Below are positions 46,693 to 63,444 of a DNA stretch of 64,000 nt, in pieces (the first letter of the stretch is position 1; each line of letters opens with the position of its first letter). Where the stretch lies: contig CAWAOD010000016.1 of assembly GCA_963783575.1 (NCBI GenBank), forward strand, positions 64,001 to 128,000, read 5' to 3'. Under the pieces are notes generated by a model. The model was not told the DNA's origin and ran no database searches. It saw nothing but the letters and a program-made list of their open reading frames with translations. The translations under genes and the position numbers were made by a program. This DNA comes from an uncultured Spirochaetota bacterium (GTDB taxonomy: Bacteria > Spirochaetota > Brevinematia > Brevinematales > JAOACQ01).

Positions 46693-46965
46693 TTAAATTT
46701 CTTCATATATTTTATTTACCAGAACTTCATCTCCGGATTTCTTAATTTGACTTCCGATAATCCCGTCATAAATCCAGTTGCATAAAATTTCAACCTCTGA
46801 AATATTGAGTTCTAAAAAGTTTGTTGAATTATTAATTTTTTCAAACAATATCTGAAGTTCCGGTAAAATAAAATCATCAGAATCAAAATGATCGGATTTT
46901 AATTTTTTATTAACAAGCTCAATTAACCGGAACTTCTCCATTTGTGAAATATTCAGCTTAACCAT
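46693..46965 (-). CDS. Hypothetical protein, possibly the degenerate distal cassette
   Basis: 90 aa low-GC ORF next to a half attC-like repeat, same orientation as the array. Confidence 0.5.
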   Translation of the reverse strand: MVKLNISQMEKFRLIELVNKKLKSDHFDSDDFILPELQILFEKINNSTNFLELNISEVEILCNWIYDGIIGSQIKKSGDEVLVNKIYEEI

Positions 46966-46993: not shown

Positions 46994-47100
46994 AAAAACG
47001 GGCGAACCCGAGGAGCGCAGGAAAAACTTTTTCTTCTTCTCCGTTACGCCCTGAAAAGTTTTTTCGAGCACCGGAGCGATATAGCCGCTTATAGGTGAAG
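46994..47100 (-). repeat. Truncated attC-like site (one half of the long type)
   Basis: Near-identical to 54730-54825 (aaaaacgggcgaacccgaggagcgcagg...tatagccgct); other arm missing and GTT degenerate. Confidence 0.7.
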
Positions 47101-47118: not shown

Positions 47119-47391
47119 TCAGCTTATACTGATATGTAAATTCTTTCCTATTGCTTTTGCAAACTTCTCTAAAGTTGAAATCTTAATATCCTGAGCGTGA
47201 TTCTCAATTCTTGATATGACACTTTTTGTTGTTTTAAGTTTTGAAGCAATTTGTTCCTGGGTTAATCCGGAATTCATCCTTGCTTCTTTCAATAAATAGC
47301 CTATTTTAAACTCATCATATCCTTCCCAAAGTAATTTCTCGGCTTCAGGATTATTTTTATATCTTTCTTTGATATAGTCATTAAATTTCAT
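47119..47391 (-). CDS. XRE/HTH antitoxin (HigA-like), cassette gene
   Basis: LKEARMNSGLTQEQIASKL.TTKSVISRIEN; directly follows a toxin-like gene. Confidence 0.85.
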   Translation of the reverse strand: MKFNDYIKERYKNNPEAEKLLWEGYDEFKIGYLLKEARMNSGLTQEQIASKLKTTKSVISRIENHAQDIKISTLEKFAKAIGKNLHISIS

Positions 47392-47727
47392 TTATTTTCT
47401 CCTCAAATAATCTTTCTTTAATGCTTCTGCTAATTCAATTTCTTTTTTTGGTGTTTTTTGAGTTTTCTTTTGAAAACCATTTGTAAGTAATATAATATTA
47501 TTTTTATACAAAAAGCTTAATATTCGATCCTGAATCAATAATTATTTCCCAAATATCATCAGTATCAGGAAGTTTTTTAAAGTAGTTTGATGGAATGATA
47601 GATAATTCGCCTATGAGTCTTAAAACCCAGGAAACCTTTTAAAATCACGCTCCTTTAAACCATCTAAAAATGTTTGAACAGGAATTTTCCCATTTTCGGA
47701 TTCATAAAATTCAATTTCTCTTTTCAT
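47392..47727 (-). pseudogene. RelE/HigB (Gp49-like) toxin, inactivated by two frameshifts; absent from the ORF track
   Basis: Manual translation MKREIEFYESENGKIPVQTFL / VSWVLRLI...DDIWEI / LLTNGFQKKTQKTPKKEIELAE. Confidence 0.8.
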
Positions 47728-47798: not shown

Positions 47799-48139
47799 GT
47801 AGAACTCTGCGGCTATGCGAAGCCCGCAAGCCTTAGCGCCAGCCCTGCGCACTTAGGCTTGCAACTGTGGTGAGTCCGTAAACAATGACCTTTATTTTAT
47901 TTATCATCATAGTCAATTTGTACTCCTTTCTCTTTTTACAAAATCAAAAACGGGCGAACCCGAGGAGCGCCTGGAGCTGCTGCAGTGAGGACGCACCGCA
48001 GCAAGCCGAGGAGCGGAACGCCTATGCGTGGAGTCTATCGAAAAAGCACGTTTCTAAAAATTTTCTTTTTGGGAAATATGGAGTTAAAACGAATAAATTG
48101 ATAAAAATCAGGGTTTTGCGACAGGCTCCATGGTTGTAT
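47799..48139 (-). repeat. Long attC-like site containing a MITE
   Basis: gtagaac...gttgtat ends; first ~170 bp highly similar to 54582-54753; nested hairpins. Confidence 0.75.
48031..48128. mobile_element. Degenerate MITE (98 bp) with IS1182-like ends
   Basis: gagtctatcgaaaaa / ttttgcgacaggctc (12/15 inverted match); flanks cgtg/catg. Confidence 0.55.
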
Positions 48140-48904: not shown

Positions 48905-49127
48905 GGTAATGGCACTGCAAATTACGGAGTATAAATTAATTTGAGAAATTTCTCAAAGGTATCTTTTATACCACAAAGTAATATGCAGCTATGTCATAGA
49001 CATTGCCATTACCAGTGCCATAACGGTGGCGCCGTTCCACCAATTCGGAGGGGAATCGAACCCCTAATCTACACCCGCAATACCCTGTATGTGTAGATCA
49101 AATTTATACAGGTGGCGGTTAAAAGCC
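48905..49127 (-). ncRNA. Candidate structured RNA (T-arm-containing tRNA/Y-RNA-like domain plus a long hairpin) upstream of the SPFH gene
   Basis: Minus strand aggggTTCGATTcccct T-arm, atctacac/gtgtagat stem, ccacc/ggtgg closing stem; 109 nt hairpin at 48905-49013. Confidence 0.5.
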
Positions 49128-49180
49128 ATTTTGTAAAAATTCGTACAACTGTGCGGCTATACGAAGTTGCCCGAAGCCTA

Positions 49181-50871
49181 CAGACTGTGTGAAAACTCAG
49201 TAAAATTTTATAGTAAAATCGATTAATTATACAAAAACTCCATTTTTTGATATATTTTTCAAGCTAAAAAAATCTTAGTTTCAAAAATCTATCCGAATAC
49301 GATAAACGATGGTTTATTAGCATCAAACCAGAGTCATAAGTCTCTTTATTCCCAATATATTCAATACTTTTATTAAATTATGAATGAATCCTGCCAAACT
49401 GGATTCCGTCAGAACGCCATCCTTTCCCTTCATTAAAAAATAACTGTAACCCATATTCCTTTTTATCGATCCAAATGGATGTTCACATATCTCTTTCCTT
49501 TTCTCTATGATCTTTTTCCCGGCTTCAGAACGAATTTTCCTCTTGAAGTTCTCAATTTCTTCTTTTCTAACTGGTACTTTGATACTTCGTCCTTCCACGC
49601 TTTCAGTACACTTATTTCTTACTTCACATTGGCTGCATAAGCCGCACTTGTACCTGACTATCTCTTTTCCTCCATTGACCTTCTCTACTTTTTTCCCATT
49701 TCTCACTAATGGGTTTCCCTCCGGACAATAATAAACATTTTGTCCCGGATCATATTTGAATTTATCAACCTGGTATTCTTCAGCAGGTACTCCTTTATTA
49801 TCTTCTTTGCCTCGAATCCTTGCCTTATGTCCGTCATCCGGATTCGGCATATATACGTTATGTCCCTTATCTATACATTCCAGTATCTGCGGTTCGCTGT
49901 AATAACCGGCATCCGATACTTTGACCGTTTCAGTCTCTACCTTAAGCTCGTCCTTTATTTCTTCTACTCGGTCACACATTCCTGCCATCTGTTTGATATC
50001 ATTGTTTTCATTCGTCACATCAATCACCACAATCAGTTTATTCGCATCATCTACTGCCATCTGCAGATTATATGCAATGTCGGATTTCCCTTTATCATTC
50101 ATAAACCGGCTTTCCGGGTCATTTGAATAATATTTCTCCATTTCAGGATTTCCCTCAAAAATCTTTTTAATAGCCTCAACTTTATCCTTTTTTGTTTTCA
50201 TTTTCTTTAAACGTTCCGCTATCTTTCCGGAAAGAAATTCAAATTCATTCTTTTCTTCCTTATCGTTCTTATCCATCTCATTCAAATATTCTTCGATCTT
50301 TTGATCTATTCTATGTATGATTTCTTCTATGTTTTTCCTATGATAAACATTGTTATTGTGGTTTTGCGCACTGATCTTGGTTCCATCAATTCCAACAACG
50401 TCAAATGATAAAAGCCCGGCTTTATGACATATCTTCAAAAATTCTCTGAATATCGACTGTATTCCCTTCTTATTATCTTTCCTGAAGTCGGCAATCGTCT
50501 TGAAATCCGGCGCTAGTCGTCCAGTCAGCCACATCAACTCTGTGTTTCTTCGGCACTCTCTCTCTAATTTCCTGCTTGTCCTGATTTTATTCAAATATCC
50601 GTAAATATAGATTTTTAAAAGTATTTCGGATTTATATGAACTTCTGCCGGTTGATGCTTCTTTTACTTTAAAACCAACTCCTTTCATATTTAGCTTATCA
50701 ACAAAAATATCTATAAACCTTACCGGATCTTCTTCTCCTAACAGATCTTCCAGTGTTTCATTGAACAGAACTATCTGATCCCTTGATTCTCCCTCAATAT
50801 GCTTCATCTTTTACTCCGATTATTTTTGTTCTAATAATTATAGCATATTTACTGTGTTTTCACACAGTCTG
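49181..50871 (-). mobile_element. Complete IS1182-family insertion sequence (1691 bp)
   Basis: TIR cagactgtgtgaaaac(t/a)cagtaaa 23/24; 3 bp direct repeat cta. Confidence 0.9.
49323..50807 (-). CDS. IS1182-family transposase
   Basis: LLKIYIYGY...SRKLE, PDFKTIADFRK, IDGTK, DAGY, EHPFG.IK. Confidence 0.92.
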   Translation of the reverse strand: MKHIEGESRDQIVLFNETLEDLLGEEDPVRFIDIFVDKLNMKGVGFKVKEASTGRSSYKSEILLKIYIYGYLNKIRTSRKLERECRRNTELMWLTGRLAPDFKTIADFRKDNKKGIQSIFREFLKICHKAGLLSFDVVGIDGTKISAQNHNNNVYHRKNIEEIIHRIDQKIEEYLNEMDKNDKEEKNEFEFLSGKIAERLKKMKTKKDKVEAIKKIFEGNPEMEKYYSNDPESRFMNDKGKSDIAYNLQMAVDDANKLIVVIDVTNENNDIKQMAGMCDRVEEIKDELKVETETVKVSDAGYYSEPQILECIDKGHNVYMPNPDDGHKARIRGKEDNKGVPAEEYQVDKFKYDPGQNVYYCPEGNPLVRNGKKVEKVNGGKEIVRYKCGLCSQCEVRNKCTESVEGRSIKVPVRKEEIENFKRKIRSEAGKKIIEKRKEICEHPFGSIKRNMGYSYFLMKGKDGVLTESSLAGFIHNLIKVLNILGIKRLMTLV

Positions 50872-50960
50872 CTAGCGCAGGGCAATTTGGGAGAGGGCGG
50901 TACTCCGCCGGAACCCGCTACCGGCCGTTGTGTGAAGTGCTTGGGGCGTATTTTCATTCA

Positions 50961-51908: not shown

Positions 51909-51955
51909 AAAAAGACTCCTTTCTATATCTTTATTTTAGCCGTGTACGCGCTGTT

Positions 51956-53672
51956 GAGCCTGTAGAAAAAGTCCGTCATTCATGTACAGAATATCGTATA
52001 TACTTTAAAATATATTGGAAATAAAATCAAGAGGTAAAAGCAATTATGGCAAGATATAAGAAAGTTAATTACGATCAAATGGAACTCATACCTGTCTCAT
52101 TCGATGAGCAGATTATACCGGGAACATTCGAATATACATTGAGCTTTCTTGTCGACAATAAAACTGATCTTAAAATCTTTGAGAATAAGTATAAGAACGA
52201 TGCTACCGGTGCCCCGGTTTATAATCCGCGGGTTAGGCTGAAGATAATACTCTACAGCTATTCCCGCGGCATTTTTACATCACGTGAAATCGAATATTTG
52301 AGTAAAACGAATATTATAGCCAAAGCCATTTCCGCCAATTCAATACCGCACTTTACTTCAATCGCCGATTTTGTTTCTTCGATGAAAAATGAGATAAATA
52401 CCGTATTCCTGAATATATTGATGGTTTGTGACGAACTGAATCTCATAGGCGGGGATATGTTCGCGCTGGACGGGTGCAAACTATCGTCAAATGCATCAAA
52501 GGAATGGAGCGGAACATTTAAGGATTTGAAGAAGAAAAAAGAGAAGCTGGAAAACCTGGTTAAGGAAATGCTTGATGAACATGAAAAGCGTGATCAGGAC
52601 GGCGGTTTTCCTGAGAAGGATAAGGAAAAAGATCTGGCACGGATCGAGAAGATTTTAAAGAAAGCTGAAAAGATAGAAAAGTTTCTGGAAAGTGAAAAAC
52701 CCAAAGACAAGGCACGGCATGGTGAAAAGCAGTCCAATGTCACTGACAACGAGAGTGCGAAAATAAAGAGTTCACATGGTGTTATCCAGGGCTACAACGG
52801 ACTTTCTGTAGTGGATTCGAAGTATCAGGTTGTGGTATATCCCGAAGCTTTTGGGAGCGGGTCTGAGGGGGAATTCCTGAAAGGGATGATCCGTAAAGCA
52901 AAAGTAGAATTGGGAAAAGATTTAAAGGATAAAATAATCACCGCGGACACCAATTATTTCAGCGAAAAGAACCTGAAATATATTTCGCAAAACGGTATGA
53001 AACCGGTCATCCCGGATACGAATTTCAGGAAGCGCGATTGCAGGTTTGAAACCGCTGACAGACATAAGCCTGCGAAGAAAGGGCAGTATACAATTGATGA
53101 TTTTCAATATGATCCGGAAAATAATGTTTATATATGCAAGAAAGGAGAGGAACTCCGGTTCAGAAATAACCATACGGTGAATCATATTACATATGCGAAG
53201 TATATCTGCCGGTTATCGGCCTGCCGCGGTTGTAAATTCCGGAAAGACTGCCTGAAAAGAGATACGGTCAGATACCGTACTCTACAAAGGCCATTGAATG
53301 CGGATAACAGACATTACTCGGACGAAATGAGAAAGTTCATAGATACACCTGAAGGCAGAAAGCTTTATGCGAAAAGAATGGCTATAGTTGAGCCTGTATT
53401 CGGGAATATAAGGGCATGTAAAGGTATGGATCGATTTACGCTGAGGGGAAAGGGAAAAGTGAATATTCAATGGGTATTATATAATACTGTGCACAATATC
53501 GGGAAAATTCAGGTCTATGGAGGTATATAATGGCATAGTGATGGAATAAAAGCAGTTTTGCCGGTAAATTCAGCCCGGTTTTATATAAAAAAGTGATTCC
53601 AGACAGATCAAAAAAAACATACTGTTTGGGAATGGAGTATTATTACCTGAAATTAACTTTTTCTACAAGGCC
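51956..53672 (+). mobile_element. Complete IS1182-family insertion sequence (1717 bp) in the GTT of an attC-like remnant
   Basis: TIR gagcctgtagaaaaagt vs ggccttgtagaaaaagt (14/17); gtt duplicated at 51953-51955 and 53673-53675. Confidence 0.88.
52046..53530 (+). CDS. IS1182-family transposase
   Basis: LKIILYSY..G..SREIE, PHFTSIADF, LDGCK, TDNES, ADTNY, VEPVFGNI. Confidence 0.92.
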   Translation: MARYKKVNYDQMELIPVSFDEQIIPGTFEYTLSFLVDNKTDLKIFENKYKNDATGAPVYNPRVRLKIILYSYSRGIFTSREIEYLSKTNIIAKAISANSIPHFTSIADFVSSMKNEINTVFLNILMVCDELNLIGGDMFALDGCKLSSNASKEWSGTFKDLKKKKEKLENLVKEMLDEHEKRDQDGGFPEKDKEKDLARIEKILKKAEKIEKFLESEKPKDKARHGEKQSNVTDNESAKIKSSHGVIQGYNGLSVVDSKYQVVVYPEAFGSGSEGEFLKGMIRKAKVELGKDLKDKIITADTNYFSEKNLKYISQNGMKPVIPDTNFRKRDCRFETADRHKPAKKGQYTIDDFQYDPENNVYICKKGEELRFRNNHTVNHITYAKYICRLSACRGCKFRKDCLKRDTVRYRTLQRPLNADNRHYSDEMRKFIDTPEGRKLYAKRMAIVEPVFGNIRACKGMDRFTLRGKGKVNIQWVLYNTVHNIGKIQVYGGI

Positions 53673-53709
53673 GTTGTACGAAGTTTGGCTGCCAATGTTT
53701 AACTAATAA

Positions 53710-54537
53710 CTATTTTGAAATAACAGTTACATCTTTATCTAAATTTTCGAATACATAATCTATATTGGAAGTAAATTCATTATATTGATCATTTTTCTCA
53801 ACATCGAAAATTACGATAATTAAAGAATCAAAATATTTTACATGTCTAACTGTTTGACCAAATAATCTATCATATTCTTGGAAATTAGGTGATTTCTTTA
53901 ATTCTATTGGATATTTATCATTTATTATTAAGTCGGCCTTACTATCACCTTTTTCTTCACTAACTTTATATTTTAAATTTTCAAAATGACTTCTAAGTTC
54001 AACTTTATAACCTTCTTCTTGATTACGCTTACGTGCAGGAATCCATGAAATTATAATATCAACAATTTTATCATATTCATTCTTTTTAATTGGTTCATAA
54101 TTAGGAATATTTAAATCTGAATAATTTTGAATAATATTTATGACATCAAACCATTCTGTTTGATTTTTGTATTTTTCTAGAAATATTTTAGGAATCTCTG
54201 ACCAAATTAAATTGTGTGGCGCATGTGTAATACTGCTAGCTCTTGGTCTAATATTTTCATAACTCCAATCTGCTTGAGTTGGAAATTTATTTAATTTTCT
54301 ACATAATTCACCCCACTTTATAAAAATATTATCAGTTGGTGTTTTTTCATGGAAAAATGTATTAGGTGTATCTCCACATTCTATTTGTAACTTTGAAAAT
54401 GCATTACTACCAAATAAACTACCTAAAACCTGACTAGTAATTTTTATATATTTAAGAAAACTAACAGAATCTGGTTTTTTACCCATTTTTTGTTTAAGTT
54501 CAAGATATTTTCTTTTGCATTCTTCTTTGTCTATCAT
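53710..54537 (-). CDS. Hypothetical cassette protein: N-terminal helical repeats plus C-terminal PD-(D/E)XK-like nuclease
   Basis: Two LxxKxxKxP repeats; E....ADLII....IELKK motif then D...GQ..RH. Confidence 0.55.
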   Translation of the reverse strand: MIDKEECKRKYLELKQKMGKKPDSVSFLKYIKITSQVLGSLFGSNAFSKLQIECGDTPNTFFHEKTPTDNIFIKWGELCRKLNKFPTQADWSYENIRPRASSITHAPHNLIWSEIPKIFLEKYKNQTEWFDVINIIQNYSDLNIPNYEPIKKNEYDKIVDIIISWIPARKRNQEEGYKVELRSHFENLKYKVSEEKGDSKADLIINDKYPIELKKSPNFQEYDRLFGQTVRHVKYFDSLIIVIFDVEKNDQYNEFTSNIDYVFENLDKDVTVISK

Positions 54538-54581
54538 AAATCACCTCAAAAAATTAAACTAAATGCTGGCAGCCAAATTTC

Positions 54582-54944
54582 GTACAACGGAGCGGCTATG
54601 CGACGTTTGCAAGCCTTAGCGCCAGCCCCGCGCGCTTAGGCTTGCAAATGTGGTGAGCCCGTAAACAATGACTTCTATTTTATTAATTATCATAGTCAAG
54701 TTGAACTCCTTTCTCTTTTTACCAAAAGCAAAAACGGGCGAACCCGAGGAGCGCAGGAAAAACTTTTCTCTTCTTCTCCGTTACGCCCTGAAAAGTTTTT
54801 TCGAGCACCGGAGCGTATAGCCGCTGTTGAGCCTGTAGAAAAAGCCCTTTTCTATAAAATTGCGAAATTATAATTCTATATTATATAATAAATTAATTTT
54901 CAGATATTTCTCAAAAATCCACTTTTCCTACAGGCTCGTTAGCT
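54582..54944 (-). repeat. Long attC-like site (about 251 bp without the MITE)
   Basis: aac-gg-agcggctatgcg pairs with cgtatagccgct-gtt with extrahelical bases; three internal hairpins. Confidence 0.8.
54829..54937. mobile_element. MITE (109 bp) with the same ends as the IS at 51956
   Basis: gagcctgtagaaaaag / cttttcctacaggctc (15/16); gtt duplicated at 54826-54828 and 54938-54940. Confidence 0.88.
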
Positions 54945-55002
54945 GATGGGCGCGGGAAAATCGGTACAATCAGCTAAGCCAAGGATGGCGATGTTTATTA
55001 TT

Positions 55003-56088
55003 TCAATCAAATGCATATTCACCGTTGTCTTTAACAAATGATGCGGCCACCTTCTCTGCTTTTACATCATCTTTTAAAATATATTTGCAATAATTATAAG
55101 TACTTTTTATGAAAGAATATATTCCACGACCATAAACATAGTCTGTATCATAAGTAGTCTTGATATTGTTCCTATTGCAATACTGTACAAGTTCCCAACC
55201 TGACATTTTATGATTTCTTTCAGATAAATATTCTGCTAATGAAACGATATTTTCTTTCCTTAAATCAAGATAATTATTATTTAATAATGAATCTATATTT
55301 AATGATTCTTTTTTTTTAATTTTTAATTTCTGCTTGATAAATAAATTAAGATTTGATAAGCTTTTCTCATATCCTATTTCCATATTTATCCAAGTAGGAT
55401 GAGCATGCCAGAAAATATGAGTCGAATCAATTTGACAATATTTTAAATGTTCATCAATGTCTTCAAAGTTAATTTTATCATCTGAAGTTAACTTAAAGTA
55501 ATTTTCGTCAAGATTCCAGTTTAAAATAACAATTATATCAGGTGATAAAGATTCAATTAAATAATGTACATTGTCCATTTTTTTAGAAAATGCTTTTACT
55601 TTATTATAATCATCCAATATAATATTTTGGTTATTTGGAATTTGGTCGTAAGGGCTAATAATATTAGTATTACCCCATACAAAACTACTTAAAATTTGAG
55701 GTATTTCATTATTTTTTAGTTTTTTCCAATCATTGATTTCATAAAATACAGCTAAAAATTGTAAAATATAATCCCAGAAACTTTTTCCAAAATTATTTGT
55801 ATAATTTAAAAATTCAAAATCATCAAAATCAACTTCATTCCTAAAAAGAGAATCAATTGAGCACTTATTAAAATGTTCAATAAAATCTTTCATAATACCA
55901 TAGCCTTTTGCATCTCTACCAATAAAAGCAATTTTATATTTTGTAAATGGATAACTTTTCCCAAAACTAGGAAGACAAGGTTCTGGTATCCCTGATAAAT
56001 TTAAATTTTCTATATCTAGCATAAATTGTTTTATCATTGGTAAATAAACATTAGTAAACTGATTTTTAATCTTCTCTAAATTTTCCAC
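55003..56088 (-). CDS. Hypothetical first-cassette protein, possible uracil-DNA-glycosylase-superfamily domain plus C-terminal domain
   Basis: GTG start with RBS aaggag; P.FGK.Y...KIAFIGRD, WGN, L.PDIIV and HAHPT motifs. Confidence 0.5.
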   Translation of the reverse strand: MENLEKIKNQFTNVYLPMIKQFMLDIENLNLSGIPEPCLPSFGKSYPFTKYKIAFIGRDAKGYGIMKDFIEHFNKCSIDSLFRNEVDFDDFEFLNYTNNFGKSFWDYILQFLAVFYEINDWKKLKNNEIPQILSSFVWGNTNIISPYDQIPNNQNIILDDYNKVKAFSKKMDNVHYLIESLSPDIIVILNWNLDENYFKLTSDDKINFEDIDEHLKYCQIDSTHIFWHAHPTWINMEIGYEKSLSNLNLFIKQKLKIKKKESLNIDSLLNNNYLDLRKENIVSLAEYLSERNHKMSGWELVQYCNRNNIKTTYDTDYVYGRGIYSFIKSTYNYCKYILKDDVKAEKVAASFVKDNGEYAFD

Positions 56089-56149
56089 AAAAATCTCCTT
56101 GCGGCAGGACGCCGCATCTTGTTCAAAACAAAAATCTCCCGTGCCTTTC

Positions 56150-56200
56150 AGCTAACTCGATATATACGCATTGCGTATATCATGCCATTTTGGCACTAAT
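56150..56200 (-). other. attI-like junction at the head of the array
   Basis: Minus strand G|TTAGCT core with no attC hairpin upstream; adjacent palindrome atatacgca-t-tgcgtatat (56162-56180). Confidence 0.55.
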
Positions 56201-56266
56201 TACACAGTTATTGAATTCATTGTTTAAAAACAATAAAACTTCCGGCCAACGGAGTGGAATAATTTA

Positions 56267-56296
56267 ATTATAGCATTTTAATTTATTGATTGTCAA
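56267..56296 (-). promoter_or_regulatory. Pc-like promoter firing into the cassette array
   Basis: Minus strand TTGACA-N18-TATAAT with TGn extended -10, about 110 bp upstream of the first cassette. Confidence 0.75.
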
Positions 56297-62535: not shown

Positions 62536-63444
62536 ATGATTTTGAAAGCCAACCTGTTTTTTTTAAGTATGTTGATCTTTCTGGGAGTATTATTTACATA
62601 CAGCTTTGTTTATAGCACAGTTTATACCGCAGGGCATGACGGCAGCGATGCCTGCTACTGGACCGGATCTGAAGAGACCAAGCTGCCGGGCGGAGTCGGC
62701 AAATATGCTAGCGCAAAATCAATCTTTGTATATAACGGTACTGTTTACACAGCCGGGTATGACAGCAGCGGCCATGCCTGCTACTGGACGGAAACAAACA
62801 TTACAATATTACCGGGAGGCTGGGGGGCAAATTCAATATTTGTATATAACGGAAAGGTCTATACTACAGGATATGACATTAACCGCAACGTTTTTTACTG
62901 GAAAGGGACAAATAAGATAATTTTACCGGGAGAAAAGGGCGAGGCATATTCAATTTTTGTAAACAACGGCATTGTCTATATCGCCGGGATTACCATAACA
63001 ACGAATGAAAAAGACGATATTTACGACGCCTGCTACTGGACTGGAACGAACAAAACAATATTACCGGACGGCTTTTTAGCTGATTCTATCTTTGTTAACA
63101 ACGACACTGTTTACACTGCCGGGTTGGACACCGGCAGCAACGCCTGCTACTGGTCCGGAACGAATATAACAATATTACCGGACGGCTTTTTTGCAAACTC
63201 TATTTTTGTTTATGACGGCACCGTATATACTGCCGGGTTGGACACCGGCAGCAACGCCTGCTACTGGGCTGAGACAAACATAACAATATTACCGGGCGGG
63301 CGGGAAATAAAATCAATGTTTGTAAATAACGGGACTGTGTATACAGTCGGGGATGACGGCAGCGCAGCCTGCTACTGGACAGGAACAAATAAAACAAAAT
63401 TATCCGATGGCTTTTTTGCGAACTCAATTTTTGTGACGCCTTAA
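62536..63444 (+). CDS. Exported repeat protein (about 7 repeats of ~38 aa, probable beta-propeller)
   Basis: Repeated SIFV..GTVYTAG.....ACYW...N..ILP. Confidence 0.8.
   Translation: MILKANLFFLSMLIFLGVLFTYSFVYSTVYTAGHDGSDACYWTGSEETKLPGGVGKYASAKSIFVYNGTVYTAGYDSSGHACYWTETNITILPGGWGANSIFVYNGKVYTTGYDINRNVFYWKGTNKIILPGEKGEAYSIFVNNGIVYIAGITITTNEKDDIYDACYWTGTNKTILPDGFLADSIFVNNDTVYTAGLDTGSNACYWSGTNITILPDGFFANSIFVYDGTVYTAGLDTGSNACYWAETNITILPGGREIKSMFVNNGTVYTVGDDGSAACYWTGTNKTKLSDGFFANSIFVTP

Follow-up and report, generated by a model that had tools for sequence, protein, structure and literature searches.

The window analyzed here, a 64,000-nucleotide stretch (C16:64001–128000) of the genome of an uncultured Spirochaetota bacterium (G000; assembly 89.85% complete), carries at 54582–54944 an element that, once an inserted MITE is removed, is very probably a cassette-junction site in an integron-like array. 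Sequence comparisons and predicted folds make a tyrosine recombinase without the IntI-specific (I2) insertion the likely enzyme acting on it, with the folded single strand as substrate.

Structure of the site in the window

Subtracting the MITE (54829–54937) and one copy of the 3-bp target duplication from the 363-bp interval leaves 251 bp, and the related site at 47799–48139 comes to 239 bp without its MITE, in line with the sizes of about 251 and 240 bp given in a preliminary description of this DNA. The plus strand, which is the bottom strand of the site, folds at −53.7 kcal/mol (z = −6.16), a stability reached by 0 of 200 shuffled sequences. In this fold, three branches lie within an outer stem whose closing pair is AAC/GTT (Table 1). 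The preliminary description had proposed an attC-type outer stem enclosing separate hairpins and had suggested folding the bottom strand as single-stranded DNA; the fold bears the proposal out. The top strand folds less stably (−50.6 kcal/mol, z = −4.22), the advantage of the bottom strand being small (3.1 kcal/mol). A search against Rfam returned no family at the gathering score and two weak matches, both far below threshold.

Table 1 Features of the array and of its 251-bp site (positions in the window)
Feature	Position	Strand	Remarks
Giant attC-like site closing the first cassette	54582–54944	−	363 bp; 251 bp without MITE
L′ arm and R′ box	54582–54602	−	Crossover triplet 54586–54588; two extra bottom-strand G beside the R box; from fold and arm table
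Branch 3, GC-rich hairpin stacked onto the L stem	54603–54651	−	From fold; common to G011 sites
Branch 2, short stem closing a 73-nt AT-rich loop	54652–54744	−	Loop 54662–54734
Candidate mini-ORF, 25 codons	54616–54693	−	ATG 54693; stop 54616–54618; hand-derived coordinates
Shine–Dalgarno-like motif of the mini-ORF	near 54706–54712	−	Alternative TTG start 54699
Branch 1, forked hairpin	54745–54813	−	The "last module" of the preliminary description; from fold and module table
L′′ arm and conserved R′′ triplet	54814–54828	−	
MITE with IS1182-like ends	54829–54937		Inserted at the R′′ triplet; triplet duplicated
First cassette	54941–56156	−	ORF 55003–56088, without Pfam match; ends complementary, score 11
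Second cassette	53673–54588	−	ORF 53710–54537; ends complementary, score 17
attI-like site	56150–56190	−	Crossover triplet 56154–56156; core motif same as behind the C5 integrase
Sigma-70-type promoter candidate	56267–56296	−	12/12 consensus, extended −10; points into the array
IS1182-family element	51956–53672	+	At the R′′ triplet of the second cassette; site behind (near 51941–51955) truncated
IS1182-split site	49143–50933	−	IS 49178–50871; 97 bp without IS; arms pair poorly
Chimeric site, 239 bp	47799–48139	−	MITE 48031–48128 removed; L′′ arm from another family; mini-ORF intact
Truncated site	46994–47100	−	R′′ damaged; L′′, branch 1 and a single strand of branch 2 follow

The window array and its broken sites

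From 46.7 to 56.3 kb, the window holds a minus-strand array of short ORFs with structured spacers between them; three transposases of the IS1182 family lie within the array or next to it. The core motif of the attI-like site has four exact copies in the genome, one of them at 56150–56190; with no recombinase of its own, the window array is an attI-like platform. Several arrays of G000 (on C4, C5, C9, C13, C15, and C16) are headed by attI-like sites with a near-identical strong promoter consensus and no recombinase gene; these dispersed solo promoter–attI platforms, which include window positions 56150–56296, are given as copies seen, with no genome-wide count. At 22 places in G000, all of them cassette ends, IS1182-family elements or MITEs sit at the exact end triplet and duplicate it, which leaves the site behind the IS with a usable core; in a second group of IS and MITEs, the insertion lies 4 nt further in.

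Three other sites of the window had been taken as evidence of module swapping. The resemblances themselves are real: the 47799 site shares its first part with the 251-bp site (179 bp at 88%), the 46994–47100 site carries only the last module (a 98% match over 97 bp of the opposite end), and the 49143 site shares just the outer arm. Their reading as swaps is not supported. The 47799 site is a mismatched chimera in which the two outer arms fail to pair (L-stem pairing probability 0.07, arm score 6.1; outer stem predicted absent); the 46994 site is a truncation that has lost its R′ half, has a damaged conserved triplet, and runs into the start region of ORF 46693–46965; and the 49143 site is split by an IS. 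All three are probably decay products, and the broken sites of the window may have arisen by recombination between shared internal motifs or by IS damage.

Other features of the window were also recorded. An HTH antitoxin-like ORF (47119–47391) follows a short region resembling a decayed partner gene, making 47119–47600 a possible toxin–antitoxin cassette. The SPFH-domain cassette opens with a GC-rich non-coding stretch (49000–49140), single-copy in the genome and with a weak tmRNA/tRNA-end match. An ORF at 62536–63444 encodes ~38-residue repeats (114-nt period) without a Pfam match, and a similar fragment occurs in a relative, G008.

Size and distribution of the sites

Twelve near-full copies of the 251-bp site occur in G000, all within same-strand ORF arrays; genome-wide collection of copies had been advised in the preliminary description. 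The largest array of the genome lies at C5:458–485 kb. A DNA search of 60 relatives matched the site in G011, a Spirochaetota relative of the same family, and once, weakly, in G008, and nowhere else among them. Sites with matched arms in G000 measure 153–253 bp; all 22 are above 141 bp and 16 are above 200 bp. The default attC size limit of IntegronFinder is 200 bp, and size-limited screens may miss such sites, as the preliminary description supposed. Matched sites in relatives span 59–223 bp, and, of 39 other Spirochaetota genomes in which the recombinase region was examined, 16 have the same site type beside the recombinase family described below (92 sites, 94–187 bp; five automatic calls dropped by eye); 66 of the 92 are above 141 bp and none is above 200 bp. 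G000 is the upper size end of a wide site family.

Searching for the branch-2 pattern gave 119 stretches in metagenomes, none in an attC context, a single genome (G000) out of 401 across the phylum, and three matches among viral sequences, none attC-like. A first genome-wide scan for arms was too strict, recovering none of the known sites, and was replaced by the later site calling.

Several individual loci stand out. In G309, loci L273 and L274 hold an array alternating ~98-bp and ~155-bp sites, the longer ones with a 65–68-nt AT-rich loop and no Shine–Dalgarno signal. Genomes of family f15 contain dense arrays of 151–187-bp branched sites (L250, L254, L255; 42 sites in 60 kb) with the same recombinase family upstream. 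G011 (L043, L041) has many copies of one cassette that lacks a long ORF, including directly behind the attI-like site. At positions 199100–199170 of C15 in G000, an array that is otherwise non-canonical includes what looks by eye like a classical attC hairpin of short length (~65 bp).

Conserved arms and interchangeable branches

Arms were compared in 57 sites, 29 curated in G000 and 28 called in relatives (three automatic calls were dropped by eye); 52 could be anchored and five could not. Matched arms were found in 49 of the 52, a count that is partly circular since arm complementarity was itself the basis for calling the sites in relatives. Among the matched sites are 27 different arm pairs, which show many compensatory changes, and the L stem covaries, with 3–7 pair types at five of nine positions. 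AAC/GTT triplets close a folded R and L stem, the triplet being mutated in two G000 copies. All 49 matched sites have 2–4 extra nucleotides on the bottom-strand 5′ arm beside the R box, starting with GG in 44. The conserved extrahelical G that canonical attC sites carry near L′′ is not seen: the inner nine L pairs are free of bulges in 32 of the 49, and the remaining bulges vary, sit near the inner end, and are not a conserved G, with the excess bases on the opposite arm. The length of the matched G000 sites likewise falls outside the 57–141 bp published for attC (accessible text of PMC5371416 and PMC5027507), the ~250-bp sites reaching almost double its upper end. The preliminary description had taken both IntI and attC geometry to be normal; neither assumption holds, the linked recombinase having no IntI insertion and the sites no conserved extrahelical G.

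Behind these arms, interiors are exchanged. Arm A encloses different interiors (160, 219, and 248–253 bp), arm B is found at 154–160 bp without the AT-rich loop and at 222–225 bp with it, and branches, assigned by rough motif labels, recur between arm families and genomes. The broader claim of giant, branched, modular cassette sites therefore stands, since copies lie in cassette arrays, outer stems covary, and arm families surround different interiors.

Cassette ends and junctions

In 35 cassettes, the 22 nt that follow the opening GTT were compared with the 22 nt that precede the closing AAC, the latter reverse-complemented, and the match was scored. The mean own-end score was 11.63 vs 2.65 for other pairs, and the observed sum was reached in 0 of 100,000 permutations, in a test that is not fully independent and is partly circular because some cassette boundaries were first spotted by a signature-based caller. 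Own ends were the strict best partner in 21 of the 35 cassettes, four had own-end scores of 0–1, and the two sides of one array site scored just 2.27 (22 adjacent pairs). This match is the pattern left by circular cassettes opened at GTT.

Junction comparisons are independent of the end-match score. Two places in G011 carry the same cassette with its 223-bp site, with identity covering 920 nt upstream and only 3 nt from the G of GTT, and one cassette start stands behind an attI-like site and in six other 30-nt contexts. In G000, a two-cassette block found at two places behind different sites is 99.9–100% identical and shares 2 nt upstream of GTT. Three cassettes closed by 251–253-bp sites, including the one in the window, stand first behind an attI-like site. 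The complementary core sites and the crossover at GTT that are expected of a canonical integron are thus present. On the sequence evidence, AAC/GTT triplets bound the cassettes, and identical cassettes change neighbors at GTT.

Predicted R-box pairing is below 0.5 in six of 11 giant sites folded in the array and at least 0.93 in all 11 circular forms, where the added complementarity raises predicted pairing by construction; by folding energies, the bottom strand is the more stable in 10 of the 11 circular forms. The ~20-nt match between a cassette's own ends would clamp the giant site in the excised circle, and on these models the clamp suggests how such long sites could stay usable. It predicts a bias of insertion over excision.

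The linked recombinase

On C5, a tyrosine-recombinase gene lies directly upstream of the array on the same strand and is followed by the attI-like motif (C5:457129–458248). The gene (C5:457129–458193) contains two frameshifts, for which decay and assembly error are both possible, and no second copy was found in G000; the arrays of this genome may therefore be inactive. A recombinase and an attI head a same-strand array in G000, in G011, and in a Bacillota-labelled contig; in G239, the array lies on the strand opposite to the recombinase.

The gene is intact in G011 (L030:1405–2460, minus strand), and its 351-aa product comes closest to IntI4 and archaeal XerA. In the alignment, its residues 251–276 span IntI4 181–248, which makes ~42 residues fewer, and the I2 insertion is absent. 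The protein scores 212 bits against TIGR02249, below the 265 cut-off, and lies above the NF040815 cut-off. A profile search of G000 found nothing over the TIGR02249 cut-off and no match covering profile positions 193–232. The IntI-specific insertion is described as necessary for integron recombination in the accessible parts of PMC9668308 and PMC8138268.

The structural model of the G011 enzyme (pLDDT 88.8) has an extra N-terminal α/β domain. Pfam HARP matches 24 of 47 homologues at E ≤ 0.01 (best 2.4e-6), the G011 query itself having no HARP match. A homologue search gave 7,719 proteins among 8,000 candidates. From the repeated adjacency, we infer that the I2-less enzyme acts on the giant sites. 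It would read the 2–4-nt bulge beside the R box and not the classical bulged G, the N-terminal HARP-like domain possibly helping.

AT-rich loops and candidate mini-ORFs

An AT-rich stretch occurs in 26 of the 57 sites, which measure 161–253 bp, and 30 of the 31 sites without one, most of which have matched arms, are below 190 bp; the ~70-nt loop is much of the extra length. AT-rich loops of 58–77 nt were found in 19 of 21 loop types examined. Nine loop types of 65–77 nt are mostly dissimilar, and seven of them contain a Shine–Dalgarno-like motif, an ATG, and an open sense frame of 20–27 codons, a pattern noticed by eye before its test, with 0.16 expected from shuffles and 0 of 9 in antisense. 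Six of the seven stops lie 30–39 nt before GTT. Three unrelated loops enter branch 2 in a common frame, and three others enter their own stem in a common frame (1 in 81 if independent). Among family-A copies, the frame is open in 16 of 17 and the other two frames carry stops; the substitutions (4 synonymous, 10 non-synonymous, 0 stops with ~0.6 expected) show no clear selection. In one loop type, the frame is retained in G000 and G011 alike. Held-out loops from eight other spirochaete genomes gave the signal in 0 of 12 with ATG and in 1 of 12 when TTG or GTG was allowed, so the mini-ORF feature is at most specific to G000 and G011.

No sense-strand promoter consensus was matched inside the window site, and loop promoter scores were mostly at shuffle level, with two loops more promoter-like (shuffle fraction 0.04 each). 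Origin of the loops from a captured gene start was tried with the dehydrogenase gene of the window and rejected, its start scoring 32 where the shuffled best reached 35–42; among 6,002 gene starts, the best donor scores were not clear of those of shuffled loops.

A translated mini-ORF would keep ribosomes on the long untranslated site and so protect expression of the next cassette, and from the sequence patterns we put at about even the chances that the mini-ORF in the AT-rich loop has this selected role. The accessible literature reports that short ORFs in attC sites relieve a hairpin block of translation (PMC8876359, PMC11511950) and that, in a class 1 array, downstream expression fell 4-fold owing to an untranslated stretch of 98 nt (PMC11511950). 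A site with its own translation start, if true, would answer this loss of downstream expression from untranslated stretches.

Discussion

The cassette junctions could be real and the Shine–Dalgarno/ATG loops neutral relics, whether captured gene starts or promoter fragments, a reading that falls somewhat short of an even chance. It would fit the 12 held-out loops without the signal, the unclear dN/dS, the 31 sites that dispense with the AT-rich loop (most with matched arms), the two rather promoter-like loops, and the broken sites at 46994 and near 51941, where a site runs into a real gene start and such fusions evidently occur. Against it stand the frame relative to the downstream stem, common within both groups of three loops, the narrow placement of six of seven stops, the loop type whose frame is conserved in G000 and G011, and the lack of a donor clear of shuffles among the 6,002 gene starts.

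Two further readings leave the I2-less enzyme or the cassettes without a role. A canonical IntI, missing from the assembly or acting in trans, might recombine the sites with the I2-less enzyme as a bystander, as the ~90% completeness (89.85%), the short classical-looking site on C15, and the frameshifts in the resident gene would allow. This is improbable, since G000 has no match over the TIGR02249 cut-off or covering positions 193–232, I2-less gene, attI-like site, and array follow in succession in G000, G011, and other phyla, and the bulges are those of no classical site (32 of 49 bulge-free in the inner nine L pairs, the others without a conserved G). That the elements are dispersed modular hairpin repeats of the BOX/REP kind, or structured RNAs, with no part in cassette recombination, is highly improbable: their modular make-up and many decayed and truncated copies do recall such repeats, but the copies are concentrated behind attI-like sites, within arrays of same-strand ORFs, a passive repeat would predict neither own-end matches nor GTT junctions, and no Rfam family was reached at gathering score, so that the elements belong neither to BOX/REP-like repeats nor to a known structured RNA.

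Taking the element as a cassette-junction site, we tentatively propose a second kind of integron, a possibility in which an I2-less, HARP-bearing recombinase would read the R-box bulge and site interiors would be free to grow. Here it may have produced composite sites of up to 253 bp that combine a recombination site, a folding clamp, and a translated mini-gene tuning the next cassette, with interchangeable branches. A literature search, with subscription journals mostly outside it, main texts covered in part, and supplements that may list longer sites, returned no description of I2-less cassette arrays or of attC above 200 bp. Integron surveys take the IntI insertion as defining the system and rely on attC models derived from sites of 57–141 bp; if the proposal is true, current counts leave out a large pool of cassette arrays, the recombinase family being matched in 35 of 151 Spirochaetota genomes. 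The defined parts make testable the need for the I2 helix and the bulged G in folded-DNA recombination, and the maximal site length.

Short ORFs inside attC and attI sites (ORF-11, ORF-17) were reportedly described by Jacquier et al. in 2009. Like these, the loops described here place a short ORF with its own ribosome-binding site within a recombination site, an arrangement reported, in the accessible text of PMC8876359 and PMC11511950, to raise downstream translation. Unlike ORF-11 and ORF-17, which are called anecdotal there, the mini-ORFs occur in seven of nine dissimilar loops and make up much of the oversize; their function is putative.

The system resembles the Treponema integrons in being a spirochaete array, and the co-oriented ("reverse") integrase is typical of Spirochaetota (PMC9668308, in part). 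It differs from them in its sites, the attC of Treponema being 63–132 bp with a protruding G in the accessible text of PMC3607928. With the attC of sedentary integrons, such as the Vibrio cholerae repeats (VCR), the sites share the AAC/GTT core, the GTT crossover, one site per cassette, a folded outer stem, a branched terminal structure in long sites, and bottom-strand G:T wobbles, as far as PMC5371416 and PMC5027507 describe them in their accessible parts. They depart from VCR-type attC in their size (153–253 bp), the absence of a conserved extrahelical G, the 2–4-nt excess beside the R box, the ~20-nt own-end complementarity of each cassette, and the optional ~70-nt AT-rich loop.

Among recombinases, the G011 enzyme has its best sequence and fold match in IntI (IntI4/VchIntIA, PDB 2a3v), with a Phage_int_SAM_4 and a catalytic domain, and like IntI it adjoins an attI-like site and a cassette array. 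Unlike IntI, it is missing the ~42 insertion residues and has an extra N-terminal α/β domain that is HARP-like in half of the homologues. Taken together, the system appears from its sequence to work like a sedentary integron, yet it fails the three tests by which integrons are recognized: the IntI insertion, the extrahelical G, and the size of the site.
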